From assembly GCA_003568945.1 (NCBI GenBank), contig BDIP01000034.1, positions 4,808 to 40,273 on the forward strand: 35,466 nt of DNA. The letters are read 5' to 3'. Positions 1,959 to 33,743 of this stretch are shown here, in pieces; within the stretch, counting starts at the first letter, position 1; every line of letters starts with the position of its first letter. The notes below the pieces were generated by a model that saw nothing but the letters and a program-made list of their open reading frames with translations, made no database searches and had not been told where the DNA came from. A program made the translations under genes and the position numbers. Origin of the DNA: Kipferlia bialata (lineage: Eukaryota).

Positions 1959-4900
1959 CTAGATCTCGGCAACATGCACATAGGGATGGAGGGAGCAGAG
2001 GCCCTGGTCTCAGTTCTACCCCTGATGCAGGGCGTCGCTAGGGTGAGTCCCCCCCTCCCTTCCTCTCCATATTCAACTCTCTAACTCTTATTGACATGCA
2101 TTCATAGTCTATCTTGCCCTCTGCCATTCTTATTAGATCTCTCAGATACACACTGTATTTCTGATTCCCAGCTTGACCTGAGCAAGAACGACCTCGACGC
2201 TGCATGTATATCCCACCTGGCTGAGGGTCTAGGCCAGATGACATCGCTGAGGGAGGTGGGTATGGGATTGAGTGACACATTTGTGGTATCGCCCTAGATA
2301 CCTTTCGTATATATGCATCATGACCCCAGCTGGACCTCAACTGCAACCCCCTCAAGGGTGCAGGACACACTACTCTGGCCGAGAGTGTTCTACCAAACAT
2401 GCCACAGCTGAGGAAGGTACATGCAATGGGTACTCTATGTATTCACCTGTCATTGCCAATACTTGTTTGTGTCTTGATATACTTGTTCATGACACCAATT
2501 CCAGCTTGTCTTCTGGCACACTGGGATGGACTGCACTGGTGCCCTGGCTCTTGCTGGAGCCCTTCCCTCTCTCAAGAAACTCTTGACGGTGAGGCAGAAA
2601 GAGATATGTATTCTACCAGTGTATCATCTGTCTCTGAGGCCTGTCTCACTTCCAGCTGGACCTGGATAACAACTTCATCAAGGGTGCTAGTGCTGCTGCC
2701 CTTTGTGAGGCCCTGACGTCATTCAGTTTTGCCGGGCAGGTACGGTCCACCGGTTAACTGTATTTCTCTCATATCCGTCACTGTTTTAGTATCATAGTGT
2801 ATGCATCACTGACACTCAGCTGTGTTTGCAGAATAACTCGATAGGGGATGAGGGTGCAGTGGCACTGGCCAAGAGGCTGGTGGGGGACAGACCAGAGATC
2901 ACTGAGGTATGTTTGTACCAAGCAGAGACATACCTGTATCTGACGCCACTGTGTGTATAGATGGGTATTGACCAACTCAAATGGTTGATATGATACATAA
3001 CACACTATACAAGAAACATGACAGTGTCTATAACGATCAGATTGCCCTAGCCTCCAACAAGATTGGACCTGTTGGCATGTCTGCCCTGGCTGGTGTCCTG
3101 CCTACCCTGACCAACCTGGTGTCGGTAAGGGGCACATATGTTCATGTGGATATAGAGTGTCCAGTATATGCAGTATTCTCTGGTCCCTCATGCTCAGGTA
3201 GACCTGGGTTCCAACAGTATTGGCCCAGAGGGAGCAGCTGCTCTGATAGAAGTCCTTCCATCCTTGACCAAGCTCAGAAGGGTGAGTCACACCGCTCAGA
3301 ACGCTATTGAGATAGTATCACATGCGAAATTCTGTGTTACAGATGTGATACTCCCGTTATACTATACACGTCCAATAACCATTCACCTTCCATAACCCCC
3401 AGATTGACCTCTCCTCCAATGACATTGGACCAGACGGTGTGACGTCCCTGTGTCGAGCCGTATCCTCTCTCCCCAGGCTCAGGGAGGTGAGTAGACGCCT
3501 ATTGGTCGGTGTCTTCAGTTGTTAACGTGAGATGTTCATTCACCGACCATGCGTATCGTGGTAGTTCCTGGCCAATGGAGATCGGGGGTCATTTACTGAT
3601 ATATATATATCTTCTTACCCTCAGCTCGACCTCCACTCCAACGGCATGGACGATGAGGGGGCAACACGTCTGGCCAAGGGTCTTCCCAAGATGAAGGCTC
3701 TGAGAGAGGTTGGACACTGTTGTATCTGTGGATATACGGTCATACGGTATCCACATATATTAGAATAGTGTCACTGCCACCCGCTCCCTCATCCCCCAGA
3801 TATACCTATTCTCCAGCCGTATCAGTGACGAGGGGGCAGTGGCCATTGCGAATGCTCTAGAGAAGACACCCACACTGAGAGTGGTACGTACAGACGTGTT
3901 AATATGCCTAGGTGCTCTCCCATTGCTGCTGTGATTAATGTTATTGAAAGATCAATGTGACGTCTTGGCATGGCTATCTGATACTAGCTGGAGTTGAATA
4001 GCAACAGGATGATGGACACAGGTGCCGCAGCTCTTGCCCAGGCCCTACCGGGGTCAGGGCTGATTCAGGTGAGTGGCTCACATACAATTCAAGAGGATCG
4101 ATGCATTATGAATTTGTAGCGTTTACCTGTATCTACTTACCTATACATCTGACGACAGTTGAGTCTGAGTGCCAACTCCATTGGCGAGTCTGGGCTGGCA
4201 GAACTAGAGGCAGCGGCACTCCAGATGCCAAACCTGAATGTGCGGCTTCTACTTATGATATGTATACAAATATACCATCTACAATGCTATTGTATACAAT
4301 CTGTTGGTAGCCCTATACAACCCTACAAAGTCGGAGTATCATTCGTCATGCAGTTCACATGCTTAGGTGATGACTAACCCCAGCTAGAGGTCGGTGAGAA
4401 CCCAGGGAACGCACCTCCAGAGGTTGAGGAAGAGTCAAGTGACGACGGGATCCCCTTCTCACAGAGTGTGTTCCTGAATGCAAGTGCTTATTCACCAAGA
4501 AAGAGCGTGGTAGTGAGAGAGACTGAACCTGTGGCAGAGAGAGACCCAGACCTCCTGGACATAGCCGACTTGGAGGCAGATGCCCCTCAGATGCCGGAGA
4601 TGACGGTGGGTGGAGGGTGTATAGTGTCGACACAAAGATTATGGTTATGTACTTGTCTTATCCCAGCTTGACCTGGATGAGAAGGCAGAGGATACTGTCC
4701 AAGCTGATGAAACACAGACTGGTACTGAGACTCCAGATACAGAGGTACCCCTTCCCGCAGAGGGTGAGGTAGTGGAAGAGGGTGAGGCCTCGCCTGCAGA
4801 GAGTGAAGTAGTAGATGAGTGTGTGGACTCTCCAACTGAGGCTGAGTCACTTGCAGATGCCGAGGCTGAGGCGCTGAGAGAGAGTGAGAGAGATCGGGTA

Positions 4901-6133
4901 CGTACCATGCTCATGGACTCACTAGGAGTACTCTCCCACCCTCTGGAGGGTGTGTCTAGCGACATGCCTCTGATGGACCTTGCCACCTTGTGGGGTGTAG
5001 CAGCAGGGGCAGCCCCACCCCCTCTCAGCCAGGTGTCTGTAGCATCAGTTGAAGAGTCTCTAGCGACAACTCAGTCCCTCCTAGTTAGGGTCAAGGAGTG
5101 TGCCCCAGGTGTTCAGTCCCACATGGACTATCTGACCAAGGCAGCGGAGCTTGTGGGTGCTCAGATGACAGAGCTCTGTGCATTCATTACGCAACACCCG
5201 GAGGATAAGGTATGTCATTCATTTGGGTTGAGCATACTGTGACTATATCAATATATCATATATCAAAGATGTAGTGGCAGTCGCCAATACCTCACCCCAG
5301 CTTGAGACCTGGGACTGTGCCTCCCTCCACTCTGACCTAGAACCACTATGCATGGCTATGGATAGCTGCTGCACAGAAGTGGCATCTCTAGATGGTAGCC
5401 AGGAGGCCAGTGTACTGGCGCTGCAGGAGGCTGTTGCAGTGCGTAATGCCCTGGATGATATCAACCCCATCCCCCTGCCTCAGGATACCAACGCCCTGAC
5501 CCTGGAGGAGAAGGCGCTCTACTGTAAGGTACACTCTTTGCATGACTACAGATTCAATTGTCTACCTATTATGCACGTGAAGCCATCCCTCAGCCTCCAT
5601 CCCCAACCCCTCTAACGCAGGCTGAGGCCCACAACCTATCTGTCAGAGAAGTGTTTGAGGCTGCCGCTCCACTGATAGAGGTGGGAGACAGCATCAACCA
5701 TCTGCTAGGAGAGTCCATCCCCTCCCTATCAGAGTGCAGAGATGTCCTGACCACTGGGCAGTCTCTCCTTCTCTCACTCAGCACACTGGCACCCAGACAG
5801 GTAGAGGCAAGGCGGCTGCTACTGGAGCTGGAGGCCCTGCCCGCTGTCGCTGTAGATGGGGGTGAGGCCAAGGTGGCTGAGCATGAGAAGGTGTCTGTGG
5901 CTATGTTGGGTCTCGATGACCCCTCTCTCTCTGCACAGGAGATGGCCAGTCAGATACAGGCCATACCTGACACAGAGACACCCACACCCACAGACAAGAG
6001 TGGGGAGACAGAGCGTGCTCGCATCACCCAGGAGCTCCAGGGGTACCTCAACTTCCCAGAGGTGGCAGAGGCCCTTGGGGTACCCGTGGTGCCACGGAGT
6101 GGGGAGGAGGCGGATGAAGTTGGAAACGAGTAA
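1959..6133 (+). CDS. Ribonuclease-inhibitor-like LRR protein with acidic linker and helical C-terminal region; start codon unresolved
   Basis: LRR exons at 1959-2042, 2172-2255, 2330-2416, 2505-2588, 2656-2739, 2820-2906, 3041-3124, 3198-3281, 3403-3486, 3625-3708, 3800-3883, 3988-4068 and 4159-4239, of pattern LxLxxNxIGxxGAxALAxxL. Then 4384-4605, 4667-5209, 5301-5528 and 5621-6133. All introns are phase 0 GT-AG. Confidence 0.9.
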
Positions 6134-14071: not shown

Positions 14072-14456
14072 GGTTGGCCTGCACGCACTGCACAGGGCAG
14101 CTGTCAGGGCAGGGAGGTAGGGAGAGCATCAAGGGTGTCATGATATATGGTTACACATACATCTGCGTGTATATCGAGTCATAGGGCAAGGCTGTCAGGG
14201 CAGGGAGTGACTCACTCCCGGAGTGAGTATGCATCTGTGTGTGTAGACTTACTGTGAATAGCCCTCTCTACCCCCACCCCCAGGACGGATGACGAGATAG
14301 CACAGGCATGGGCCCAGTGGAACAGGTACATATAGACATAACTTCACGTCATATATACTGGATGTGTATATATGTGCTATCACAGATCACTCAGTATCCC
14401 CCATAATAACATACTGTATCCATCTACTCCAAGCACCACCAGGCTATACATCTGTG

Positions 14457-14495
<39 letters not shown>

Positions 14496-15531
14496 ATCCC
14501 CCCCACCCCAGGCACCAGCAGACTACTTATATACTTATGTATATATACACTCTATCCCCCTCCCCCCAGGCACCAGCAGATCAAGGAGCAGGAGAGGCAT
14601 GACAGACTGAATGCCATGGAGGCACAGAGGCAGATCAGGCTGAGGGAGGAGGTATATAGATACACACTTGTATATATATATATACAGAGAGAGGGAGAGA
14701 GAGAGGTGTCCCCTTGACCCCAGGCTGCCAGAAGGGAGATTGAGCGGCACGAGAGAATGGCTAGACAGAGGGAGGAAAGGATAGCAAGAGAGGCCGAGAG
14801 ACAGGTATGGGAGAGATGTGATCTATCACTCTTCGCGTTGTATGTCATCATGCCATTAGTCTGCATCGACATCTTCTCCCTCACCCCCCAGATCCCCTCC
14901 CTCCACAAGGCCAGTCCTGTCCATACCCAGGGGGATAGACCAGGGAGGGCACAGGAGCCTAGGAGACAGAGGGGCAAGAGCGGAAAGGCTAGATACAAGA
15001 GGTATTGCAGTCTCTTCCTGTGCCTATCTGCACATATGTGTATCTGTAACCCCTCACCCCAGCCCCCTGTCCGAGCATGGCTTTGTGCCCTCCTCCTCGC
15101 CCTGTGTTGACATGGAGTCAGGGTACGGGGCTGGGGTGGATGTCTCAGTGTACTCAGCAGAGGATGTGGCCAGGGTGGCACGGGAGACACTGGCAGGGGG
15201 AGAGGGAGGGGGGACAGAGAGCACCCACCCCCCCTCTGACTCTGCCTCCAGTGCCCTGTGGGTGGGTGTACCTGCCACATCTCTCCTGTCCACCCACGAG
15301 ACCAGGGCCAGGAGTGCCCTCAGGGCTAGGGCCAAGAGTGTGTGGGGGAAGAAGGGCAAGGGGAAGAAGGGGAAGAAGGGGGGGAAGGGAGAGAGTCATA
15401 CTGAGGCAGAGGCAGAGGCAGGTGTGACCATCTCTCAGCCCAAGGATGAGGAGCCGGCTGTGTTATTCACAGAACAGCAGGGCGGAGAGGGAGAGGGAGA
15501 GAAGAAGGAGGGAGTGGAGGAGAGTAAGTGA
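14072..15531 (+). CDS. Hypothetical protein, 3' part; charged coiled coil plus Lys/Gly-rich tail
   Basis: Phase-consistent exons 14072-14116, 14284-14325, 14570-14651, 14724-14804, 14892-15001 and 15063-15531, reading ...RHQQIKEQERHDRLNAMEAQRQIRLREEAARREIERHERMARQREERIAREAERQ...GKKGKGKKGKKGGKG... Confidence 0.72.
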
Positions 15532-15745: not shown

Positions 15746-16762
15746 TTACTTCTTGAGGGCAACCTCGGCGAACTGGGAGGGGAACCTGGCCATCCAGGCG
15801 CAGGCGTGCTGGAGCTCGATCTTGTGGATCACCTCTCCGCAGGAGTGGGTGTTCTGCTCGGATCCGGCACCGAGGCCAAGCATGGCGGGGTACTTGAAGC
15901 CGGCCACCTCGATCCACCTCTTGTGCTCGGGCACCTCAAAGGCGGTGTGGGTGGTGGGGAGGGGCACGCCCACTCCGTCGGTGGAGAAGATCCACCTGCC
16001 GACGTGGGGCTCGGGCTTGATGTAGTTGTCGAGGGCCTTGTTGTGCTCCTCGGTGATGTTGGGGGTGATCACCTGGGAGTAGGACTGGGTGGCGGCAACG
16101 ATGGCGGGGTGGTCCTCGGGGGTCTCCCAGCCCATGTAGATCTGGTCGTTGTCGGGGTTGTATCCCTTCCAGGACAGCTCGGTGTAGTGGGGCACGGAGA
16201 CAGTCACGGTGAGGCCGGCCTGGCGGGCCTTGGCGATGGCGGGCAGCTTCTCGACCATCTCGACGCACATGGCGGGGGTCTCACCCACGGTCATGCGGCG
16301 GTCGAACCTGAAGGTGAACCTGTCAGGGACGGCACAGTCGGAGGGGGTGTCGAGCTTGGCCCAGGAGGCGGTACGGGTGCCCTTTCCGAGGAAGTCGTGG
16401 TCGAGGATGCCCTCGCCGTTCTCGACCTGCTCGGTGGCCTCCACAAGGATGCGGGAGCCCCACTCGAGGGGGTTCTTGCCCATGTGGGGCATGGATCCGT
16501 GGCAGGAGGAGCCCTGGACCTCAACCTCGATCTGCATGCGACCGCGCTGTCCGCGGTAGATGCCGAGGCCGGAGCGGGTGGAGTCACCGGTTCCCTCAGT
16601 GAAGACAAAGCAGTCGGGGATGAACTCGGCGCCCTTGCCGTTGAGGCCCTTGCGCATGATGTACATGGGGCCGCATCCGTCGTTGTCCTCCTCGGCAACA
16701 GTGCCCACAGAGCGCACAATGACGTTCTTCATGGCTCCCTCAGACTTGAGCTCGAGCATGAT
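15746..16762 (-). CDS. ygeY: M20/DapE-family metallohydrolase, YgeY-like; terminal exon only, N-terminus in gap
   Basis: Motifs GTVAEEDNDG, IYRGQRGRMQIEVEVQGSSCHGSMP, DFLGKGT, CAVPDRFTFRFDRRMTVGET, WIFSTDGV and THSCGE match my recollection of bacterial YgeY. CTCACCCCAG acceptor ends at 16763. Codon usage is strongly C/G-ending. The symbol means family similarity, not proven orthology. Confidence 0.88.
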   Translation of the reverse strand: MMLELKSEGAMKNVIVRSVGTVAEEDNDGCGPMYIMRKGLNGKGAEFIPDCFVFTEGTGDSTRSGLGIYRGQRGRMQIEVEVQGSSCHGSMPHMGKNPLEWGSRILVEATEQVENGEGILDHDFLGKGTRTASWAKLDTPSDCAVPDRFTFRFDRRMTVGETPAMCVEMVEKLPAIAKARQAGLTVTVSVPHYTELSWKGYNPDNDQIYMGWETPEDHPAIVAATQSYSQVITPNITEEHNKALDNYIKPEPHVGRWIFSTDGVGVPLPTTHTAFEVPEHKRWIEVAGFKYPAMLGLGAGSEQNTHSCGEVIHKIELQHACAWMARFPSQFAEVALKK

Positions 16763-16827
16763 CTGGGGTGAGGATTAAGGAGGGGGGGGGGGGCTGAGCA
16801 AGAGAGAGATAGAGTATGGTGACAAGA

Positions 16828-17013: not shown

Positions 17014-17115
17014 CCCCGGGGTTTTGTGGTCCCCCCCCCCCCCCCCCCCCCTATTCCTATCCCCCACCACTTCCCTTCTCTCTCTCAGGGTCTCTCTCTC
17101 TATTCTCATGTCCAG

Positions 17116-17893
17116 GCATTGTGTGCTGCACCTTCCTGAAGGCATGCGAGGACACATCTCAGTATGTACGTGGGAACTTACTCTCTGGGTGTGAGTCTTA
17201 CTCTCTCTCCCTCTCTCACTCTCTCTCGCTTTGATAATGTACTTACACACTCTCTCACTCTCTCTGCTAGGACACGTCCCAGTGTGTATGGGTGTTGGGT
17301 ATAGTCTCCTTATGTGGATAGTACTGGTGTCCTTATACTCCTTCTATCCCAGACTCTCTGTGATACACTGGAGGAATGGGGGGGAGACGCATTAATGCTA
17401 CCTATCCCCGATATCGTATACCCTCTCTCTTTATGTGATTGTCTTCTCTCTCTCTCTCTCTGTATGTCCCTCTTTGTCCCCCCCACCCCCAACGCATTTT
17501 CTGTAGTTACTTAGTTAGTCAATGGATCCCTCATCGTCCTCAATCACTCTTCCAATATCAGGAGAGCTTTTTGCACCGGTATGGCGAGTACCTGCTGAGC
17601 TCTGTGTCCTACTATGGGCACAACTCTCTCTCTCTCTCCAAGATATCAAGGGGAGAGGGAGAGGGAGTCTCTCTCTCTAAGAAGAACCAGTCTCTGGTGC
17701 ATACACTGGTTGAGTATGCACCCATTGAGAGAAAGGGAGAGGGCGAGACAGAGAGAGAGGGTGAGGGAGAGGGAGAGGGAGAGAGACAGCTGTGGGTAGA
17801 GGCACTGGGAGAGAGACTCCCCGATGTGCAGAGAGTGGCATGTCTCAGTGGCATCAGTGTGAGGTACACACACATATATATATATATACACAC

Positions 17894-17936
<43 letters not shown>

Positions 17937-19048
17937 ATTTATGAGTTACTCCGATGTGCAGAGAGTGGCATGTCTCAGTGGCATCAGTCTCAGGTATAGA
18001 GATTCTGTTAATGGATATATATATTCTTGTTTATGTATATATATATATATGTATATATATGTATATAGATACCATTGTATATATATTATATATACTATAT
18101 ATGGCTGATTGCTAATTTTGAATTGTAATTTATATTTAGATTCTATTTCTATGCCTCAGTGGTAATGAACATCACACCCTATATATGTAATCATATATAT
18201 AAATATATATATATATGTATATCACCCTCACCCCAGGGGCTTGTACATCATTCTGCTCAACAATCATTATATCATTTGCAATATCAGATACTCATAGAGA
18301 TTACCATACTCATAGATACTCACCCCAGGGGCGTGTACATCATCCTGCTCAACGTGGCCAGGATCAACACACCCAGGAGAGAAGGGGACGGGGAGGGGGA
18401 GAGAGAGAGAGAGGGTGATGACGTTGGTGCTTGGGTGTCAAGTGACCTGGGGGCACTGGACTGGTTCAGGTATCAATCGTATGTAGTTGTATACTATATA
18501 TAGTCACATATATATGTGTATAGTTCTCTATATATGGCCAGTGACATGGGGGTACTGGACTGGTTCAGGTACATAGTGTATTGTTATGTGTCCTATATGT
18601 AGGTATATATGTACTTACTCTACCTTGGTATGATATCTCTTAGTGTGTATGGGTGCATGGGTATCAAGTGACATGGGGGTAATCCTGTGGTTCAGGTACA
18701 TATATACCTTGCCTATCCCCCCCTCTGCCGCTCTGCACCTGTCGTCACTTTACTATATAATGCTTCCTCTCATTCCAGATCCATCCCCCTCTCTGCCATG
18801 CTGCACCTTGTTCTGACAGAACTGTCCATGGCAGCCCTGGCATCAGTCATGGTGGCTAGACTGACAACACAGGTGTATATATATATATATACATATATAT
18901 ATACATATATATATATACATACATACACACACACACACTATATATATATACACATATATATAGACTGAACTGTCCATGGCAGCACTGGCATCTGTGGCAG
19001 TGGCTATGCTTTCTACGCAGGTAATATGTATGTATACATATATATTTG

Positions 19049-19089
<41 letters not shown>

Positions 19090-22000
19090 CTGTCCATGGC
19101 AGCACTGGCATCAGTCATGGTGGCTAGACTGACTACGGAGGTATAGACATACATACATACTACTGTATATATGTATATATATAGTGATATAACTGTCCAT
19201 GACAGCCTTGGCTTCTGTGTCTGTGGCTAAATTGTCTACGCAAGTATGTAAATGATACTATATTATTTAGTTGTGAGTAATAGCATTCAATTTTGTTAGT
19301 ATTTCTATTTTAGTGACGTGTGTGAGAATTTACATTTATGCATATCCATCTGTCTCTCCAAGAGAGAGTGACAGGAATAGTCAGGGATAGTGGAAGAGAG
19401 AGTTTCAGATCTACGTAATCTAATCATGCGTTGCATCTCTCCCTCTCTCGCCTACATGTTCTCTCACTCCCAGGCATACACTCAGCAGGCCAGTAGCCCC
19501 TCAGATGTGGCTAAGAAGGAGAGTGATGGAGAGAGGGAGACAGCAGGAGAGGGAGAGGGGGAGGTAGAGAAGGAGAGTGCCCCAGAGGAGGTCTCCATCA
19601 GTAGCTATATGCAGAGACACAGGTGTGTATTGAATACAACTATATACGTGGATGTTTGATTGCAAGTTGAATAACCATACCTATGTGGAGAGTTCAGATC
19701 AGACATTATAATCCGTTGTTACACTTGAGTACATTGTCTCTCTCCATTCTTGTCTTATCAGCCCCTCTCACACCAGGCGTGCTGCTGTCCTTGAACCAAT
19801 CCGCTCCTTCTCTCTCTTTCTCTCCATCTCTCTCTCTGTCTCTATAGTCTACCACTCTGACCCTAGGGCCACTGCTGTCCTAAGCCTGATCAGATCCCTC
19901 TCTGTAGTGACCAGTGCCCTCACTGCTCTGCACAATGCACAGACATCAGCAGATGCATCTGTATCATCAGCTGTGCCTACTGGTGTGGTCAGCAGTGTGC
20001 ACAGACTGTACCACCCACTGACACAGGCACTGCTGGAGCACACTAGGTATGTATCCTTCTTAAATATGTATATATATATATCTTCATCCATGACAGAGGC
20101 ACTGCTAGATCACACTACATACTCTATCCACTGACAGAGGCACTGCTGGAGCACACTAGTATGTATCCTTCCTATATATTCTTCTTCCACTGCTGGAGTA
20201 TACTAGGTGATATTTGATTCATTACTGCCTTTCTCTTATAGTATATATACTATTCACTGCTGACTGTACTTCCCACTGACAGAGAGGCACTTGGTATCCT
20301 CCCTATATATATAGACTACCCACTGATAGAGGCACTGCTGGAACACACTGGGTACACACAGTGTCCGCGTGTTACTTATTCCCCCCACCCCCCCCCAACC
20401 ACACCCCATATCTGTCTCACTCCAGTATCATATGCCCTCTGACCCACACAATATGTACATATTATTATCATATTTTACAGGATGTACTATATTTCCATAT
20501 TCTCATTCCTGTTAGAGTTCTTACACTCAGTGTGCTATGCCCCCTGTCCCACTCCTCCAGACACAGTCTGATGAAGAGCATCGCTCTCTCCTCCTCCCTG
20601 CCCCCCTCCCATGCTATGCCCCGGTCCATACAGGCGGCACTTGCTGTCACAGTATTATTCGGTGGGAGGTATGTTTCCTTGATATATTTGAACAGCCATT
20701 GTATACCCTGTTGCACTCGAGTCACTCTAGTGGGTGACTACATATAGTATTGCGTAGGGCTTCTTTGCATGTATATATTGTCTTCCTCACCCCAGGGACG
20801 GCCTTGGCCAGGGCGAGGCCGACTTTGTCTATAGAGAGGATGAGAGACAGAGGATGAGGGAGGTAGCCTGCAACCCCCCAGGGTTTGTGGCGCGTCTCTC
20901 TCTCAGCCGCACCCTGCCTCTCTCCCTCGACACCTCCACCATATCTGGGGTACTCAACACCCTTTATCTAGGCTATGAGGCCTTCATGTGTAAGGAGAGA
21001 GAGAGAGAGGGAGAGAGGAAGGGGGAGAGGGCGTGGCGGCTGGATGTTGTAATCAACCTGGAGAGACTGTGTGTATGTCTGAGAGACTTCGTGGAGACCA
21101 ATGAGGCACTGGGGAGGCTGATAGCCAAGAAGGTCTTCAGCTTCGTGGCATCCTGCATCAACCAGTATGAGGTATGGCTATGTATCTAACTATCGTATCG
21201 TATCGTATCTACTTAGTCACCCCAGGGGAACAGGGTGCAGGGCATGCAGCTGTTGACGGGTCTCCAGTCCCATGTGTCATCCTATAAGGCTGAGTCTGAT
21301 GATCCCTCGGTGTATAGTGTCCCCCCTCTCTCTGTCTCTCTGGCATGGTCAAGGGTGGGTATATTAAGACAATATATATACAGTGTATATATATATATAT
21401 ATATAATTATTATGGTAGCAGCTGTGTCTATAACAATTCATGTCTCCCTGGCATAGTCAAGGGTGGGTACATGGTGATCTCTTTCCTTCTTATGTATGTA
21501 TTATACATATATAACAATATTAGTATCCCCCCAGGTGTTATTGGAGGTTGCGTTGGACTATCTGTCAAATACGTATATCCACTGTTCCTCTATCTCTCTT
21601 TCTCCCCTCAATAATTCCTCTCTCTGTCTCTCTCTCTTCCCACTAGCACTGGATTGTGTTTGGACCTGAACTCTCTCTCTCTCTCTCTCTACACCCTTAT
21701 ACCCCAGATTGTGTTTGGACTGGCATCCTATGCAGAGGCTCCTCTGTCCAGCCTATTCGTAGGTCAGTAGTTGTTGTATATTGATTTCATATTGGTATAT
21801 ATTCTCAGTTGTGTTCTTGAAGGTTGCTGTTGGTAGTTGGTATTTCACTCTCACAATGTTTTCCTAAAGGTCCTATAGTATCTTCACTCAAGTGAGTATA
21901 TATACGTGTGTAACCCCCAGATAGTAAGGTCGCCAGAGGGTGCTACCTTAGACAGAAGAACACACAGAGGGTGAGTCATAAATATTATATAATGTATAAT

Positions 22001-23563
22001 AGATAGAAATATATAATCAGTTTTATGAGTGTTATACTCATTGCCTATCGATAGAATAGATGTCCTTGTCTATCCATGGATATCACCAAATCGTATGTAT
22101 GTGATTTATGGATCGAGTTTCTAAACTATTAGTGCCTGACTCCAGGTGTACCTGGACGAGTACGCCGATCCCATCGATACATGCTACCAGAAGGGAAAGA
22201 CAGAGGTTCACATCCCAAGGGTACGTACCAGTGCCCACTACTTTTCACATACTGCAGTTAGGCTGAGTGGTCTACTCTAATCACTCTGATATGTATAGTA
22301 GAAGTTATGAATGTATAGTGTCATACTAGTATAGTCTATTGAATTTCGATGATATATATATATATATATTGATATATATAGTAATACCAGGATGTGACTG
22401 ACCTCCCTCTCTTCCTGTCCACCCTTGTCTCCATATATGTATATAAGCATTTTAATATATCTTTATATATATTGTATTTATATATCTATATATATACACT
22501 GACACCAGGACGTAACAGACCTCCCTCTCTTCCTGTCCACCCTTGTCGCTGTCCCTGTCTCCCTGTACCCTGCAGACAACAGAGTGCCACAGATACTGGC
22601 AAGGTGCATATCGTCAGGAGAGACAGCAGCCGGGGTCGTAGGTATTGTATAGTGTAATATATATATATATATATGTCTATATATATATATATATATGTCT
22701 ATATATATATATAATATACATACATTTATATATATAAATATATATAAATGTATGGTCTAGATTCATATATGACAGAGTCCAGAGAGACAGCAGCCGGGGT
22801 CGTAGGTATTGTATAGTGTAATGTATTATATATATGTATTCATAGTTGTCTGTACTAGTCTCCTATATAAGACATCTCCCGAGACAGCAGCTGGGGTCGC
22901 AGGAGTATTTAGTCCTTAAATATGAAATAATATTATACTATAATAGTATACTATAATAGTATACTATAATAGTATAGTATAATAGTATAGTACAATATGT
23001 ATTTGTATTCATTTGTATTATGGATGACTAGAACATCCGTTTGGAGTTTGTTGTATGGATGTGTATTCATCCATGATTCACTCCAGGGCTCATTGACGGA
23101 TCTGCAACTGTTCGCCAACCATTCACAAAGAAAGAGGTGAGATGCATAATATATCTTAGGATGATATTTCGGTATACCAGTTAACACCGCGTCGAGAGTG
23201 TTGTTCCACCTCTATATAATATCAAGTATTGCGTATGCCATTGATATTATCGAACACTGTGGGTTCCGTTCTAACTCCAAGGCAGGTATACTATTTTATA
23301 GCTATATTATATACTACGTATACTATTCTATAGTATTCTGCATTCTAACTCCTAGCATATGTTATACTATGTATTGTATATCTATACATTGTAACCCCTA
23401 GGCAGATAGGATGCAGGAGAGGGAGAACTACGTGCCTCGCATCTATGAGGAGGTCACTGAGAGAGACGAGAACAGACAGAGACTCATGGTGACTGGCGAT
23501 GTCTACAAGCACTGTGCCACAGTGGACTTTGACAGAGCGAGGGCAGGTGGGCTTGTAGCACAC

Positions 23564-23603
<40 letters not shown>

Positions 23604-24447
23604 GTGTGTGTAATTCTCTAGTCTCTCTTGTATCCTTACACCCAGGCGAGAAAATTGAGTTGACCTTTGTCATATTGTATATTAATGATCCATATTCATA
23701 TCGATACGTATTGTTCTTTAGTCCGTTTAGTATCTCACCCTCAGGGGAGAAGATTGAGCTTACCTTTGTGCGTGACTGTGACATTCTTGGACTGCACATC
23801 GGGAGGGGCACGCGGGGAGTGCTAGTGGGTACGTAACACACTATTAGTATATTAGTATACTAGTGTATTGTATATTGAGTGTATGTGCTATTGGGTGGGC
23901 CACGATGGGTGTGCACACATAGTAGTGGTGTAGTATATATGTGTATGAGGTATTGGGTGGGGCGCGATGGAAGTGCTAGTGGGTACGTATCAAACAATAC
24001 TTGTATAGGATTTATATTGTATGTTGTTGTATGTGTCTCGTTTCTTGTTATATGTATGTTGTTACTGTTGTATTGTTATGAGCGGAGTGCTAGTGGGACA
24101 TGTGTAGAGTCATTCAGTGCATTTAGCACTGAGAACCCGCATGTTGTGGTTACTCACTCTTCAGGATACATGGGATATGACCCTCGTCTATCTGGTGTGG
24201 AGTCCCCTATTGTCAGTGAGGCAGAAGGCACGGGACAGATCTCCTCGGACGGTGACATTCAGATGAGAGACATGATTGTGGAGGTCTCCTGCTTCAGAAC
24301 CAACCTCTCCATGTCCATCCTGTCCACACTCTACCAGGTACTGTCTCTATATCGATTTATACAGATATATATTGATATCTATATGTACATATGTGGATGT
24401 TCACACTCTACCAGGTCATCAGTCTCTTTTGATATCGATATCTGTAG

Positions 24448-24496
<49 letters not shown>

Positions 24497-27400
24497 GTTG
24501 TGTGTATCATGCTCCCATTAAGTGTTTCCTCCACGTGTATGCATGATAGTGTGTATACTAGTGTTGCGTTCGTATTTGGATCCTTATACCCAGCCACTTC
24601 TCTGGATGAGGTATGGTCCAGAGGTGTTGGCTGCTCAGACAGAGACTGAGGCCTCAAAGAGCACTGACGACACTTCAGTTGGTGAAGCCAAGAAGTCAGA
24701 GGGTGGTGCTGACCCAACCCCCAGTGCCAACCCCTTGGCATCTGAGTCTAAGGACAGACAGATCATGGCTAGACTGCAGCAGAGTACGGACATGGACAGG
24801 TACTATTCCAATATATATATAATGACAATATTTATATATCTACACGATTCCAATGGGTATCTAGACTATTCCAACGTGTATCTACACGATGTCCCATGTA
24901 TCTCTCTCTAATCGCGTAGACAGAACAGGGCCGCTAGGGCCATAGAGCAGGAGCTGAAGGCAGGTCTCAAGGACCCAGATGCCAACATGCCCACTCTGCT
25001 GGATGTCATCAGGAGGAGGTATGTATATATATATACATATATATATATACTTGTACATGTGTGTGTATGTGTGTATTTCATATACGTATTATGTCGATGA
25101 GCCTCTACTATATTACATTTGGTCAAGACATCAATGCACCAACATGTTGTCTTCGTATGATAACCTTTCATTAGTCTTACCACCAGGGAGAGGCGTGCCG
25201 AGGTTGTGCCTCTGAGTGCCCAGCAGGTACAGAGGGTGCATGACCATGCTGCATATGGGCAGTGGCTCTACTCACAGGTACAAGCCCCCTACACACAGCT
25301 AGATATATAGTGTTTACTGTTGTATTGAATAACATTTCACGTAAGTCTCATCCTAGGTTGGAGACATAGTCGATGGGCGTATCTGTGACGACATTCCCGT
25401 GGGGATGGGTGCTAATCAGGGCAAGACTGTGGAGGGAGAGAGAGAGAGGACATCCCACAAGGCACCATCTACATCCACTGTACCACACCGTAGCGGCTAC
25501 TGCTCTGCTGTGCGTATAGTCAGGAAGAGGGAGATGGGATCTGGCAGAGAGGCAAGGCGCAGGAGGCGGGTAACCCTTGGAGACGTTGCCCCTAAGGCTG
25601 GTGGTGTGTCTGGTGGTACCACATCAGGTGATGATGAGAGAGATGTCGTGCTCTTCCCCCTGCAGCGTGTATATCCATCTGACAGAGAGAGGGGGAGAGA
25701 TGCGGAGGAGGGGGAGAAGTCGGATGCCCTTCCTCCTGTACCTCCTACGGCCCCAGGTAGTGAGACATCTACCACCAAGGGCACTGCCTTGGGTGGTATG
25801 TGGCCTCTAGACAGTAAGAGCGGGGGTGACAGAGACATACCTGACAGCTTCGTCGCAGATCACGGTCTGGCCCTTCCCCCACTTGGGGAGACACTCGTGA
25901 GGTCAGTGTATAAGTTGATTGTTTTGTTGTTATCTAGACATCTAACGATTATTCCTGTGTTTCTTCTGTCCTCGTACCCTACCTTCTAACGAATAGGATT
26001 CAGCACAGTTTCCACCTCGTTGCAAAGCTCCTGGAGCACCCACCCGTTCCCCTGGTCACTCCCAACATGAGACTAGCCATAGACCTAGGTACACAGTAAC
26101 ATGTATACAACCCATTTCCGTCACATCTTCCCAGCATGCGGCTAGACATATACCTGTGTATAGTGAATATCACATACACCGTAGAGACTCTCGTCGTTCT
26201 TACCATCAGGCATTATGTGTGCCTTCACAAGTGTGCTCTACTACCGTGCACACTTCAGCACCCCTGACCTAGCACCCTCAAATCCATCTGAAGGTCTTCC
26301 GGAGTTGCCACTCTCTGAGTACCTTCCCCCACTCCGTGTGGTTGTCCAGGCCGTGCGGGCCTCCCACCCGACAATGCCAGCTTACATGGCACACGCACCG
26401 TTCAGAGATGCTATAGTCTGTGGGTACAGAGTTGTGGAGGTTGAGGATGAGTGGCCATCTATACCCTCCAGAGAGGATAGACGTAATGAGATCAGAGCCA
26501 TGTGCCTCGAGATCATGACGCGGTACCCCTTCTACTTCACCTCTGTACCTGCCCTTGTGCCTGCACAGGATGGTGACTCTACACTAGCCACAGTCGGGGA
26601 GAGGACCCGGAAGACATCTGTGGAGACATGGGAGCTGGCCTTTAGGACGGCTGTTGCACACGTGTCACGGTCTCTCCCTAATAGGGCGGGAACTCGTCAG
26701 TATGTCCCTTCCCCTTTCACAGACATGTCTGTTGTATCTCCCCACACACCAGCTGGGTGTGTTCAACTTATCAACGGAGACTCTGCAGTCACAGGTGGGA
26801 CTTATTGTACTTCACTCTCTTCAATAGCGATTAGTACCATTTACCAATGTCGTATATTACTTACGTTTCAATAATATATCACTATTCTATCATATTACTA
26901 TCATATTTCATTGTATTTCTTTCTCTTTCTGACCCCTAGCTCATGCTGCCTACCTCTGCCACTCACTGATGATCACCCTGCAGAGTAGGTCCAAGGGCCA
27001 GAGGACTAGACCCAGCAGAGGCCAGGCATACTCTCTAGAGGCTGCATCTGATGATGAGACAGAGGGTGGAGAAGCTGCACCCTCCACACCTAGAGGCACT
27101 AAGGCTGGCTCAGAGGATGTAGTGGTAGAGAAGCCATGGCTGTCCGCTGCTGATGTTAACCTCCTCTGGGTACTGGTCACACTGAGCAGGTATACCTAAT
27201 AGTTGCAAATATATATCTTATATACATTTATATATGGATTTCGTATTGTTAACACTCAGTGACCTCCCCTGTCGCCTGAGCGCCCTTCGCTCTCTCTGTC
27301 ACGTTGGTGCGCTGTCTCGCTGTGCCTCTAGCACTGGTCCCACATGCACTGATTGTGATGGTACACCCTTCACTGTGGGTGGTGTACCCATGCCTAGTGT

Positions 27401-30400
27401 GGCGGTCCAGAGGGCCATAGTCAACCACCCGGTCTTCGGCATTATATCCGTACAGGTCAGTCTGGTTGTGTAATGTATGTACAAGGCGTGATACTGGCTT
27501 GTTAAGGAAGTGAGTATTCTATCCTCACACCAGAGCAAGTTCCCTGTACTCCTCCTCCTCTCCCACATACTCAGTGGAGAGAGACTGAGAGGTGGACAGA
27601 CACACAGACCAGAGGGAGAGAGAATGGCAGGGGAGAGAGAGCGCAACATGCTACGGTCGCCAGGTACTATGTCATATATGAATGTTTTCTTTCTCTAATA
27701 TCAACACAATTGTGTGGATTTTCACTATTCTCATTGTAGGTATGTCCCCTGGTATCTTTGGCTTCGACCCCCTCTTGTCCGATACCCCCAGTGCCTTAGG
27801 GGCACCTACCGTGTCTGCTGCCTCTCCTTTGAGGCTACCCAGCCTAGACTGCCAGGAGCAGAGAGAGAGAGAGAGAGAGAAGAGTGTCATCATTGACGCA
27901 ATGTGCCACGTCGCCTTCCATGTGCTCAAGATATCAGTATCGTCACTGGCCATGGCCAGTCCCGTTGCCTCTCCGTCTACCTCTCGCGCCTCCCCCGCTA
28001 AGCGCAACCTCACCCTATCCCTGTCAGACCCCATTGGGCCTAGGGCATACCTGGCTCTCTCTCTGGCACTGGTACAGGTACACCTCTGTTCGTCTCATGT
28101 ATATCATGTATATCATGTATATCATGTATATCATGTTTTGTACTATGATGTATTGTGTCTGGGTTTTGGTGTATCCTTATACTCACATCAGGTGTTCTCC
28201 TCCCCCACAAGGTCCCCCCTGCGCCGTGGCACTGCCACCTACTCCATCCCATTGGCACTCACAACCCGCCGTGACCTGTTATTCCTAGCCAATGCCTTAC
28301 TACACTCATCCAACGGTAACTCCTCGATAGGAGACGCGGAGGGGGAGAGGCTGACATCCGTAGAGGCTGGGCAGGGTGAAGGGAGTGACATGTTCACATC
28401 ATCCACTACCACAGCAACTAGACTCAGGTACATGCATGTGTGTATGCTCAGCTTTATCATAGTACTATATATACATATGGGTGCTAGAATATATAGGATG
28501 CAGTGTATCCTTATTGTACTGGTTGAATACACGGATTATACTCATCAATATTTTGTTGACCCTTAGGAGGTATGCAACCTTCACTGCCGCCTGCCACCTA
28601 GTAAGAGCGGCCTTCTCGATCGAGAGGGAGAGGGGGCAGGGGAGGGAGAAGGAGAGACAGCGCCAGAGAGAGAAGGTACAGTGCAGTACAATATCAGTAC
28701 GTTTGTGTCTTCTGACTCCTAGGTTCTTGACTCCCTGTCTGTGAGTGTGCTGACTGGCCTGGCCCATGCGAGAGTGACTCTCTCCATCTCCCTCCTCTTC
28801 TCGCACTGTCTGACAGTCGAGGGGGAGGATGGGACTAACGGGAGTGGTGAGAGAGACACTGCTTCCAAGTCTTCTAACGCAGCTTCCGAGGAGGTTGGAG
28901 ACTCCTCTGATTCCTCCCTGCACTCTCTCTCTCCACCTGGTAGTGGAGATAGTCTACTAGAGGGTGTCAAGCAGGAGGAGGAGCAGGGGAAGGGTGATGC
29001 TGAGGGTGGATGGATGGACAGCTCCCTCAGTACCGATAGTGTGGCAGTGGACACAGAGAGGAGAGCGGTGGAGTATGTCAGAAGAGGATACCTCACGGAG
29101 ACAGGGTCTGTGTTTGGCCTCGGTAGAGTATATACAGTGACTATGCCCTCATTAGTGCCTAGCGATGTGGTGCCTGCACAGACAGAGCAGGACGGTGATA
29201 GTGCAGACAAGATGGAGAGAGACATACTCGCCCTGTCTTCATGGAGACAGATGGAGCTCGCGCAGGCTGCTAGTGCCCTAGGATTCCACAGGTATATACA
29301 TTGATACATATGTGTAGTTCTAAATGATGTATACATAAGTATTGTCTCAATTATACTGCATACCACTCTTGAGGGTTGTATGTTTCCAGAGAACTATCTG
29401 ACTCTCAGTGATGGAGACCAGGCAGGCGCCTTCCCCAGATCCTCCGCCCTTCTCACTCCCACTGAGAGGCAGGAGCTCTCCTTCCACCCCATGTTCTCCC
29501 TGGCCTCTGTCCCGGACATATACCCCACGCTGGCTGACACTAGGAGGTATGCACGTACACACGTATATATATATATATCCCACACTGGCTGATACTATGG
29601 TATGAGGTATGGTCAGCGATTATAGTATCCTTGTGTCAGTATGTAATATGGTATTGATGTACTCTCTTTCTATCGACTAATATATCCACCTATTTTGCAT
29701 ATACAAATGTATTCATTTACCCACCTCTCATTTGTAGGCGTATGCAGGGAGAGCTTGCAGAGAGGGATGGAGCACCATGTCCCCTCAAGAGAGAGGACAC
29801 ACCCCTGACTGTGGACGGGGCCAGATACGTGGCGGGACAGGTATGTGCATATGCATGTATTAGTGTGTACTCAAATACTCCTACACTCAATTCTATTCGT
29901 TTGCATGAATTCATATTGTATTCGTATTGCATTGTCTTTCACACACACTTCTCACTCCCAGCTCAACACGATGCGTGTACATGTACGCACCCAGTGCAGC
30001 CTGGTCAGAAGCATGTGTCTGCTACTCAGACACACCCAGCTACCCACGCAGCACCTCTACCCAGTGCCTGACACTACCCCTGTCACTGCTACACCTTCTG
30101 TGACAAACTCTGTCACTCCTAGTGTGACAAGCAGCACCCCCATCACCCCGCAGGTGGCTCCTGCTGCCGCATCAACCTCTGCCTCTGCTGCAAAGGGACT
30201 GGCACCAGCATCCCCCACCCCTACCCCGACCGTACCTGTCACTCCTGTTTCACCAGCAGCTACCAAGACCTCCCCCACTACCCTTGCCCCTCGGAGTGCC
30301 TCAGCTAGTGCCGGTAGCGATGTCTTCCAGGGTGTTGTGGCTGATCTGCTGAAGCTCATGCTCTACAGTTACCCCTGCGACACGCACACTGATCTCCACA

Positions 30401-33400
30401 ACACCCTAGGGGAGACGCTTAGACATGTACTGACCCACAACACTGTACCTGCTGTGACAAGTGGGGGTATAGTGCCACGCTTCCTGGCTCTCCCTAGACC
30501 AGATCTGGTGGAGGGGGAGATACTCTTTGAGGCACAGGTCAGTGTTTCTCTATTCTGTACTCTAGCATAGGTCTCATTCTGACATATCGTATTAGTGTTT
30601 TTTTCATTCTCTTTGAGGCATAGGTGGATACTATCGAGGGACGAATACTCTAATACATTCACCAGATATGTATATTAGTATGTATGTATATATACATACT
30701 CCTTGAGGCACAGGTGAGAATAGGTCTATTATGTAATATCATGTCAGTGTATATCAATATTTGTATATAGAGTTGCAGTTATAACCTCAGGTGATATCGC
30801 GCATGAGAGGCACCCGTCAGTATCAGTATCTTCTATTGTGTACATATGTATATATATTGTGTTGTTTTATCGCCAGGTGATATCCCGCATGAGAGGCACA
30901 CTGAGAGCAGAGGGAGAGAGAGAGAGAGAGCTGTCCGAGGATGACACTGGCAACCCTTCTCTTCTCAACCTGTGGTCTGTGGTGGATACAGTCCTCTGGG
31001 TTGCAGCATCACCTGGGTTTGCAGAGGTACGGTATATGTATGTACATGAATATACATATTCCATATATGATACAGTGCTCTGGGTGGCGGCATCACCTGG
31101 GTTTGCCGAGGTATATATGTGGAGACATATGTTAGTACATCTCATTCAAACATGATACACTGTCGTATTTCTTCTATTTATTGTCTCGATAGATGTTCTA
31201 ACTCTCAGAAGCGTTCCCTTGTGATGCCTGGTGTAGCCTTGTCTCTGGTTGAGCTGATGGCTGATATCTACCAGGTATGATGATACTGATACTGATACTG
31301 ATGACTCTTATACTACCATAGTCAGACAGTGATACTATTTTGATATTATTTACTAAGATATACAGATACTCTAAAGATGTTCGGGATATTGCACAATTGA
31401 TTGTTGTAAATTCTCTGACTGACACTGATGCTGGGACCATGGCTACGACCTCTTCCTATAGACAGGATTTATTGTTATTCAGACTTTTACTGCTATTGAT
31501 ACTCATTATTAGGACCACGGTCATGACCTCTTCCTGTAACCCATTATATAATGATATATATCCATACATATATATATATATATAGATATAGATACACTTG
31601 GGTAGTTCGTATTCATAGTTAGGACCACGGCCATGACCTCTTCCTATGGCCCTCGGGTAAAGAGTACCAGGGGGCCAAGTGCCCTGACACCTTCCAGAAG
31701 GCACTCACCACCAAGAACGCGTATGGGGAGAGAGAGGTTGTGGACGAGAGGAGTGTCTGTGAGACATTTGCCAACCCAAGGGCATTCATGACACAGGTAA
31801 CGTTACATACCCAGCATTTATCTTTCACTATCATACATAGATATGCATAGCAATTTTTCCATACATTCACACTATGTTGGCCACCATTGTTAATGAAACT
31901 GGTGGTTGGGTGTCTCTGACCCTGCAGATCACGACCCTCAACGACATTGAGAGGGACAGGCAGATCAGGCAGCAGACATCAGGTACATTGTCACTAAAGT
32001 TCTTTGTATTCTCTGGAGTGTTTTGCTATCCCAACCTCAGGTGCCGACCCCACCCCCTCCGAGGGCGTGGTGGATAGGGTCATTGGGAGGCGCTTTGTCC
32101 TGTTCTTCATGTCCCTACTGGGACACGTGTCACAGGTACCCATTTATATATATACCATCATTCATTAAGGTGTGTTGTGTAGTTGTGTGAGTATTTTGAA
32201 AATACTATTTTCTCTCTTTGGAAACGGACATCAGTTTACTAACATATTGATTGAGAACATCCCCGCCCACGTCCACCGTATGTACACACATGATACATAT
32301 ATATATGATACATATATTTATATATATACATATATGTAGTATTTTCGTCTCTCTCTCTCACCCAGATTGAGAACATCCCCGCCCACATCCACCGTGTGCA
32401 TAGACTCCTAGCCTCTGTGGACAGTGCTGCAGTGTCAGGCATAGATGCAGTCAACATAGTCCAAGGGGTCAAGGCACTCATAGCCATGTACACAAGGTAT
32501 GTGTATGTGTATATCTATATATATGTATATATATATGTATAGTTATCTAGTGCAGGGGGTCAAGGCACTCATAGCCGTGTACACAAGGTGCATATTCATA
32601 TATACACGTCGTTGTTAAGGTGTCTGAGTAAGGGTTCTCTTATTACATTAATAGTTACACTATAATTGTCACTCTCACCGTCTAGGGCTGATTTCTGCCT
32701 TGACGCAGTATCAGTATCCGAACGTATATTTATATGCTTTCCCGGTGTGTATATACCACTGCTTACCCTCCAGGGCTGGTTTCTGCCTTGATGCAGGTGA
32801 CCTCGCCACCCTGAGTCACATCACCAACCACCTTCTGTGTAGGACAGGCACAGAGACACAGACTAAGGGAGAGAGAGAGGGGACTGACAACTCCCTCCTC
32901 TTCCTCCACTCCATTGGCCTTCTGATACTGTCAGTCCTGAGTGTGGAGGTGAGGGGATTGGATATTCAATTGGTGTACTATAGGATACATCATATACATT
33001 ACATATAACTCATCAATACTGACCCAACAGATGCCGCCTGATGCGACTGAGGAGTTGAGTTCCCTTGTATCAGTGGCTGTACAGTTTGTGAGGGTTGCTG
33101 TGGACACCCTCGAGGAGATTGGAGACAGACGCTCTGCATACACAGAGAGGGCCAAGAATAAGGGTGCAGCAGGAGAGGGAGAGAGAGAGGGCATGGCGAG
33201 CCCGTCCGGGGAGGAGGAGGAGGATCAGAGTGAGGAGTACACTGCCTCTAGCACTGGGGGTGTGCTGTGCTGTGACACCCTCCCATGCTGTGAGAGCACT
33301 CTCTCCCCCTTGTACCCCCTTGAGATGTCGCTGTCTCTGTCGCTGTGTGAGGTGACAAGTAAGGTGGGTGGTGCATTTCTTTCTCCTGGTGTATGGGTCT

Positions 33401-33743
33401 CTCTCTCTCTCTCAATATGAAAATTTGTGTGTGTTGGTCTAACATTCAGGTCCTCGACCGCGCCTCTGCCCTCAATGCATCCACAGCCACAGCATCAGAG
33501 ATCGAGGGGCTCAGCTTCAGATTCCTCAACAGGTACTTGTTCAACAATGAGTGCAACAGTTCACAATGAGACATAATCTTCCAATACATTTCTAGTACTC
33601 TTTGTACAGTCATTGTAAATTTCCTGTGCATTTTGTCTTCTCACCATAGGATATCCGTGTCCCTCCAGAACAAGAGTGTTACATCACATGTGGCCGAGAG
33701 CATACAGTCAGCCGCAAAGACACAGCTGCTAAACAGCGAGTGA
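17116..33743 (+). CDS. Very large (about 2700 aa, about 45 exons) mostly alpha-helical protein; tentatively a Nup188-like scaffold nucleoporin; 5' end incomplete
   Basis: Exons chain with consistent phases from about 17507 to the TGA at 33741-33743, for example 18329-18469, 18779-18872, 22146-22220, 23402-23546, 23745-23828, 25358-25902, 26210-26794, 28723-29291, 29962-30537 and 33650-33743. The first exons (17116-17500) are uncertain. The gene is well supported but the family identity is weak. Confidence 0.78.
18964..19245 (+). repeat. Three intronic echoes of the 3' half of exon 18779-18872
   Basis: CTGTCCATG(G/A)CAGC...GTGGCTA...AC.(C/G)A(G/A)|GT at about 18964, 19087 and 19192. Confidence 0.95.
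20088..20354 (+). repeat. About five intronic echoes of the exon end at 20016-20047
   Basis: Variants of CCACTGACAGAGGCACTGCTGGAGCACACTAG at about 20088, 20128, 20188, 20273 and 20320. Confidence 0.92.
24454..24492. repeat. (TA)n microsatellite, representative of many intronic ones (also about 17873-17932, 18876-18961, 22657-22745, 23566-23600)
   Basis: Read directly. Confidence 0.95.
28095..28136 (+). repeat. 9-bp tandem repeat (TCATGTATA)x4.7 inside an intron
   Basis: Read directly; it produces the artefactual YHVYHV translation in the ORF track. Confidence 0.95.

Follow-up and report, generated by a model that had tools for sequence, protein, structure and literature searches.

Exon-edge echoes in the introns of a Kipferlia bialata gene and their possible origin as stranded exon edges of diverged haplotypes

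The introns of a long gene in a 35,466-nucleotide (nt) stretch of the Kipferlia bialata contig BDIP01000034.1 (assembly GCA_003568945.1; hereafter the window, part of a gapped draft scaffold of intron-rich eukaryotic DNA) carry short copies, or echoes, of the edges of the exons that adjoin them, and these echoes are real and pervasive in this host gene. A masked local alignment of each exon against its two neighbouring introns, made without prior selection, identified 35 direct echoes of 13-58 nt in 17 of the 41 introns and at 23 of the 82 exon edges, whereas 1640 non-adjacent exon-intron pairs used as a chance control gave 46 hits, corresponding to 2.3 false hits expected. All 27 echo starts listed in an earlier reading made from the letters alone (the sequence-only reading; its entry at 20088 stands for the cluster 20088-20354) coincide with echoes of the automatic scan. 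At many echoes the constrained bases of the splice signals are kept while the free bases around them are scrambled, and we propose that the echoes may be exon edges that once worked in diverged haplotypes and were stranded in introns by homologous repair closed by end joining, an origin that we find plausible but somewhat short of probable. The evidence base is one window and one sample.

Echo census and gene model

Donor edges are copied downstream (24 echoes) and acceptor edges upstream (11 echoes), and 34 of the 35 reach to within 6 nt of the exon edge that they face, for which chance would give 8%; inverted copies, with 3 hits in 82 at the threshold of the same scan, were no commoner than chance would give. 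Echoes occur in 16 of the 18 introns longer than 180 nt and in one of the 23 shorter ones. Echo and parent are separated by periods of 55-371 nt, placing each copy within a few kilobases of its donor as in local duplication. Each echo covers one exon edge only and not a whole exon with its acceptor and donor, and the echoes carry GT or a branch point with AG and are not continued by the next exon, unlike a processed copy. They start mid-exon, preceded by intron-like DNA, many of the 3' echoes end AG-GT, and up to five copies may be found at one exon edge.

The host gene occupies 17507-33743 on the plus strand. Its 42 exons were modelled by hand with the reading frame checked, giving an open frame of 2648 codons with its stop at 33743; the 5' end is missing, since it falls in an assembly gap. 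An automatic gene finder returned a false 102-exon model in which echoes were taken in, and the hand model was used instead. The echoes are thus a trap for gene predictors, being readily called as exons. All 41 donors of the hand model read G-GT, with G as the last exon base in every case, and its acceptors have a branch-point motif at a nearly fixed 7-10 nt upstream of AG. A 7655-nt contig of run X2 agrees with the model: the pieces listed for it correspond to exons 2-8 with zero differences, its depth per bin agrees with exons 9-11, and its remaining length is 7548 nt compared with 7591 modelled. X2 is taken as RNA on the strength of this spliced contig, no listed run being recorded as RNA.

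Splice flanks and codon differences

The splice flanks present a stronger anomaly than the codons. In the 17 donor echoes whose GT is in register, identity to the parent reaches 117 of 136 positions over the last eight bases of the exon, but only 60 of 136 over positions +3 to +10; unrelated donors share 33% of these positions, and 14 of the 17 echoes lie at this background while three are near identical. Taking all 22 edge-anchored donor echoes, the GT positions are identical in 38 of 44 cases and positions +3 to +10 in 67 of 176 (P = 6e-9). The acceptor set comprised 11 echoes, namely nine host-gene echoes lying no more than 2 nt from the edge (two of the 11 were dropped) and two from a glutaredoxin-like gene described below. 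In these, AG and the branch-point T and A match at 35 of 44 positions and the free positions at 43 of 88 (P = 7e-4), and the full branch-point motif is present in 8 of the 11, as against 7% of intron positions. GT is intact in 17 of the 22 donor echoes and AG in 8 of the 11 acceptor echoes. Over +3 to +6 the echo donors score 1.05, compared with 1.13 for real donors and -0.78 for other intronic GT dinucleotides. Over both sets, 73 of 88 constrained positions are kept. Such a combination of kept constrained bases and scrambled free bases is what would be left by a pair of copies that diverged while both were working.

Simulated duplication gives flank identities of 0.74-0.85 (0.63-0.76 with heavy insertion and deletion), and flanks would have to evolve 5-6 times faster for simple duplication to reach the observed 0.44. 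After decay as fast as this, about 25% of echoes would still have GT, compared with the 17 of 22 seen (P = 3e-7). Six of the 22 spacers are faintly homologous to the echo flank (Fisher P = 5e-5); since some flanks retain this faint homology, the units would be related, with intron halves much older than exon halves. Only the echo at 22777 has the form of a copy that was identical to its donor along its whole length at birth and neutral thereafter.

The codon differences had been the basis of the sequence-only reading, which picked five cases by eye in which all 15 changed codons are silent. These cases read as stated, with one further replacement codon at the ragged end of the echo at 23646, beyond the picked case. 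The generalisation that differences are mostly synonymous is not borne out in the unselected set, where silent changes make up 61 of 127 base differences (53 of 109 with each shared change taken a single time) and 49 of 104 changed codons, and the replacements, which had been described as often conservative, are only weakly so (BLOSUM P = 0.09, not significant). The comparison of replacement with silent substitution rates (dN/dS) and of indels that the same reading had called for, made here on the unselected echoes of one gene, came out divided. Silent changes number 61 compared with 39 expected at a dN/dS of 1 under the observed mutation spectrum (P < 1e-4), and the effective dN/dS is 0.46 (confidence interval 0.33-0.65), so that a value of 1 is rejected; the Nei-Gojobori estimate is 0.34-0.43, and divergence reaches 9% at replacement sites and 21-24% at silent sites. 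On the other side, fewer than half of the differences are silent and stops occur in 4 of the 35 alignments, with gaps in 2 of the 35. As an observation in its own right, echoes gain T relative to their parents at both silent (21 versus 7) and replacement (23 versus 7) changes, which fits T-rich introns.

The premise that a neutral copy should change at all codon positions, equivalent to a null of 1, does not hold. Since a dead copy changes everywhere and the working exon fixes silent changes, the null is (1 + omega)/2, omega being that of the parent exon, and the correct value of about 0.5-0.6 is overlapped by the interval of 0.33-0.65 around 0.46. In a forward simulation of duplication that was run through the same echo detector, the silent fraction was 0.37-0.43, compared with 0.48 observed; the probability of a simulated fraction as high as this was P = 0.08-0.09 with omega at 0 and 0.008-0.025 with omega at 0.15, and 0 of 120 runs attained it at 0.3. 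Gapped echoes number 2, compared with 5-7 simulated (P = 0.01-0.17). Taken alone, the codon differences would lend modest support to a formerly selected origin. The claim that the echoes come from once-selected sequence is therefore better served by the splice invariants, together with the modest silent excess and an intron-less echo described below, than by the premise on which it was first argued. The echoes are odder than simple duplication, for a reason other than the one originally given.

Adjacency, splicing and origin of the echoes

The contigs of runs X1 and X2 were compared with the window over 17060-22440. X1 contigs cover 18234-18375, 18427-18863 and 19098-20986 with zero differences and at depths of 336, 396 and 426, respectively, and no 30-mer is repeated within any of these three stretches. 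With single contigs, no difference and no repeated 30-mer, the path that joins echo to parent is unambiguous. Stitching of haplotypes in tandem at TA runs, the assembly artefact that the sequence-only reading had named as its possible undoing, is thereby refuted wherever a single X1 contig bridges the echo; the remaining echoes lie outside the bridged stretches, including that at 17951, since 17780-18139 is without contig depth. Such an artefact might be favoured by the gaps and long TA runs of this draft assembly, in which 3 of the 35 echoes share an exact match of at least 30 nt with their parent, and X1 may be the window's own source and is not an independent sample. However, the depth of 426 over 19098-20986 is like that of neighbouring X1 contigs (331-439), X1 contains 0.98 of the words of 22100-32000 (the share on which echoes past 22440 rest), and neither as many as five copies at one edge nor echoes beginning mid-exon after intron-like DNA would be expected of stitching, which we regard as hardly credible. 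The earlier suggestion that echoes are exon parts still in use finds no support in X2, whose spliced contig skips every echo in 17060-22440 (this is one contig, and contigs drop rare forms) and whose share of words, 0.47, equals that of wholly exonic words, 0.465; the bins that hold echoes have no RNA depth. The echoes are likely spliced out with their introns, with rare use possible. Present-day selection on echoes as alternative, recursive or decoy splice sites would fit the frequency of intact GT and AG and the AG-GT endings, but is very improbable given this skipping, the lack of depth, the single splice site of each echo and the presence of stops and gaps.

In the origin that we favour, a break lying no more than about 60 nt from the edge of an exon would be followed by strand invasion of the diverged homologue inside the exon, exons being the only stretches that would be similar enough between haplotypes to permit it. 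Synthesis would then pass the splice site into the dissimilar intron of the other haplotype and, as the exon remaining for annealing would be shorter than about 60 nt, the event would be closed by end joining instead. One haplotype's edge would stay in use, while that of the other would be stranded in the intron together with its splice signal. Viable events would be only those spanning a splice site; they would be tolerated because half-exons are skipped, a half-exon with a single splice site presumably being ignored through exon definition, as the skipping suggests. The echoes would afterwards decay neutrally and might be re-duplicated (22777 and part of the exon-5 cluster), and each would add about 100 nt, which would account for the long introns. 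The three echoes of exon 3, diverged by 22%, 7% and 26% in order, with variants shared by the first and third, fit either alternating haplotypes or block re-duplication. There is some precedent for the components of this pathway: in the accessible parts of the respective papers, crossing-over between diverged genotypes of the hypervariable fungus Schizophyllum is confined to exons (PMC4209137), metamonads are described as being without Ku-type joining, with polymerase theta and several Rad52 but no Ku70 among the Kipferlia entries of a supplementary table (PMC8516963), and the Kipferlia k-mer profile suggested diploidy (PMC5874029). It is also possible, as a proposal to be held tentatively, that exon-edge turnover is genome-wide, with haplotype repair swapping in new edges and splice sites and parking old ones in introns at about 100 nt per step, so as to leave a fossil record of lost alleles, intron-less ones included.

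Several results weigh against an origin from diverged haplotypes. No second haplotype was seen in the contigs over 17060-22440, although contigs drop variants, and the account needs the additional assumption that the introns of the haplotypes were nearly unrelated while their silent sites were far less diverged; the repair pathway itself is deduced rather than directly observed. Analytically the (1 + omega)/2 null is unrejected (P = 0.36 at omega 0 and 0.06 at 0.25), and the simulation at omega 0 is compatible with a neutral echo and a selected parent. Overdispersion between echoes is not significant (P = 0.29), all-silent echoes are barely above expectation (3 versus 0.9, P = 0.05), and echoes within one family are not independent, so that P values are optimistic. 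A G at +5 is present in 4 of 17 echo donors compared with 23 of 41 real donors, the loss of donor-side identity could stem from copies that end at GTA microhomology, and at least 22777 and part of the exon-5 cluster are plain same-molecule duplicates.

Much of this would suit a local duplication on the same molecule, either tandem or templated in the manner of polymerase theta, across the exon-intron border. The copy would never have functioned, the working exon would go on fixing silent changes, and the flanks would lose their identity through GTA-like microhomology ends or fast mutation of TA-rich sequence. It fits the exon-side dN/dS, the stops and gaps in echoes, a replacement divergence similar to the loss of GT, the weak +5 G and the six homologous spacers; 22777 is a clear young tandem copy, and repair-mediated local duplications are already known (PMC2671141). 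However, it predicts flank identities of 0.74-0.85 where 0.38-0.54 is observed, fast flanks would erase GT, AG and branch points as well, and microhomology ends, which leave the acceptor side unexplained, cannot yield a branch point and AG that are correctly spaced across a spacer of different sequence. There are also fewer gapped echoes and more silent changes than simulated, and inverted copies occur at chance level only; on balance we consider this explanation unlikely, if by no means negligible. A donor in the form of a diverged paralogue, a lost subgenome or complementary DNA (cDNA), or the refreshing of echo exon halves by conversion from the exon or its messenger RNA (mRNA), would likewise give a sharp edge of similarity, and the intron-less echo at 1433 could have arisen by processing. 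This is improbable, since GT and the branch point with AG are absent from mRNA and the next exon does not follow, conversion would not keep splice invariants inside saturated flanks, and no paralogue was found among the listed contig pieces (17060-22440) or in a weak protein search.

Tandem exon duplication with mutually exclusive splicing also places exon-like copies with a silent-site bias in the adjoining intron, but the echoes differ from such alternative exons in being half-exons with one splice site that are skipped in the spliced contig. Gao and Lynch have reportedly worked on internal gene duplication, and Belmaaza and Chartrand are said to have described, in 1994, one-sided invasion repair, in which one end is resolved by homology and the other by joining. 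Together with the exon-confined recombination of Schizophyllum (PMC4209137), this supplies homology at one end, joining at the other and recombination in exons, whereas serial exon-edge fossils in introns are not described there in the portions available to us. The other comparisons likewise draw on the accessible parts of the papers. The repair-mediated duplications reported in 2009 are short, closely linked copies attributed to imperfect synthesis-dependent repair, and resemble the echoes in being local and in including partial exon and intron pieces; they differ in that partial exon/intron sequence accounted for 4 of 824 human donors, inverted copies are possible, and the Ka/Ks of a duplicated exon did not differ from 1 (PMC2671141). 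The echoes, in contrast, are direct, anchored to 23 of the 82 edges of one gene, and bear diverged but working-looking splice signals. In the potato gene for RdRp, an RNA-dependent RNA polymerase, a tandem duplication across an intron-exon boundary likewise has as its unit an intron end and exon start, but it is a single case that made a new intron, whereas here the copy lies inside a single lengthened intron and the event is recurrent (PMC4974935). Local repair duplications (PMC2671141) and boundary-spanning, intron-making duplication (PMC4974935) are thus known, and what appears to be new is the series of edge copies with diverged signals, no description of which was found in full-text searches, whose coverage leaves out most subscription papers.

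If the haplotype origin is correct, one repair process would lie behind the length of introns, the turnover of splice sites and the gain of introns in this lineage, and a single genome would hold dated samples of extinct alleles. From these, past outcrossing or a long divergence of alleles could be recognised in a protist that lacks population data. Intact competing splice sites that are ignored 55-370 nt from the real ones also offer a natural experiment on exon definition where introns are generally short. Were duplication on the same molecule to be correct, the gene would still hold an unusually dense record of boundary-spanning duplications.

Individual echoes and other genes of the window

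All host-gene echoes lie on the plus strand. Exon 1 (17821-17863) has a 3'-edge echo at 17951-17993 that keeps GT and a 38-nt exact match and that no listed contig bridges. Exon 2 has a 5'-edge echo with branch point and AG at 18237-18261, within contig 18234-18375, and two 3'-edge echoes, both with GT, at 18535-18568 and 18652-18695, within contig 18427-18863. A weak 5' echo of exon 3 at 18715-18740 is without AG and may be due to chance, and the three 3'-edge echoes of this exon, all with GT, start at 18963, 19083 and 19185 (18963-19243). An old 5' echo of exon 5 at 19777-19806 has a branch point and AG but was sub-threshold after masking and is left out of the count; the five 3'-edge echoes of exon 5 at 20085-20349 lie within contig 19098-20986, and some of them copy the parent unit including the intron start while others have unrelated flanks. 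Further echoes are a weak 5' echo of exon 6 (20431-20447), a 3'-edge echo of exon 8 that contains an in-frame stop (21441-21462) and a short 5' echo of exon 9 that has lost AG (21653-21665). Exon 12 has a 5'-edge echo with three silent changes and AG kept (22391-22429) and two 3'-edge echoes (22777-22902), of which the first, at 22777, is young, with the intron start retained and a 41-nt exact match.

The 5'-edge echo of exon 15 (23646-23670) has silent changes only and a variant branch point with AG, and replacement changes predominate in the three 3'-edge echoes of the same exon at 23890, 23952 and 24084 (23890-24096). There follow a 3'-edge echo of exon 16 (24398-24414), a weak 3' echo of exon 21 (26129-26155) whose intron is short, a 3' echo of exon 30 with three silent changes (29573-29597) and two 3'-edge echoes of exon 32 (30606-30713), each with GT and with differing intron starts, one of which contains a stop. 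Exon 33 is echoed at both edges, by a 5' echo with AG (30791-30813) and a 3' echo that keeps GT and has four silent changes in 14 codons (31069-31110). Two 5'-edge echoes of exon 35 start at 31435 and 31513 (31435-31542), and exon 38 has a 5'-edge echo with an unrelated but consensus branch point and AG lost (32250-32289) and a 3'-edge echo with GT kept and an unrelated intron start (32548-32587). The last, a 5'-edge echo of exon 39, has a variant branch point and AG (32686-32708).

Two further features were noted along the host gene. A pair of 24-nt repeats at 17145-17288, upstream of modelled exon 1, suggests further exons and echoes towards the gap, and at 21535-21650 in intron 8 a good acceptor is followed by an exon-like open stretch without RNA depth, possibly a dead exon or an old echo. 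None of 10 exon products of the gene matched a Pfam family, a protein search that was also blank for another gene of the window gave no homologue, and the atlas matches were all below 0.9, so that no family is assigned.

Echoes are also present in a glutaredoxin-like gene on the plus strand (485-1393), modelled from sequence with three exons at 485-583, 1131-1215 and 1338-1393. Two 5'-edge echoes of its exon 2, at 910 and 1019 (910-1051), have a branch point and AG with differing spacers, and show one and three changed codons in 11. After the stop of the gene, 1433-1517 on the same strand is an intron-less echo of its last two exons, comprising the last 28 codons with the stop codon, and is the only echo that joins two exons. 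Seven of its nine changed codons are silent, including a TCA/AGT serine, and five of the changed codons cluster at the intron position; this echo was noticed rather than drawn blind. The intron at 1216-1337 closes with 9 nt that repeat the end of the upstream exon and provide the branch point and AG, and in combination with the intron-less echo it looks like a recently gained intron. In this it is like the new introns of Daphnia pulex, which, in the available part of the report, have direct repeats of 4-12 base pairs of the adjacent exon end (PMC4202315), and here the intron-less version of the gene survives as an echo. The host-gene echoes differ from the Daphnia pulex repeats in being longer and intron-internal, and terminal intron repeats of more than 4 nt were found in none of the 41 host-gene introns. 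An 11-nt exact fragment of the end of glutaredoxin-like exon 2 lies at 1567-1577, one unit past the intron-less echo.

Another gene (14100-14207, 14511-14580) has a 17-nt donor-edge echo at 14191 and an acceptor-edge echo at 14511, so that the process is not confined to two genes. No echoes were seen in the 10 introns scanned, with approximate exons, in a leucine-rich-repeat-like gene at 1963-6131, which consists of a run of exons of about 84 nt with short introns. On the minus strand, 15746-16774 is a GC-rich M20 peptidase gene with an unbroken frame of 342 codons, unlike its intron-rich neighbours.

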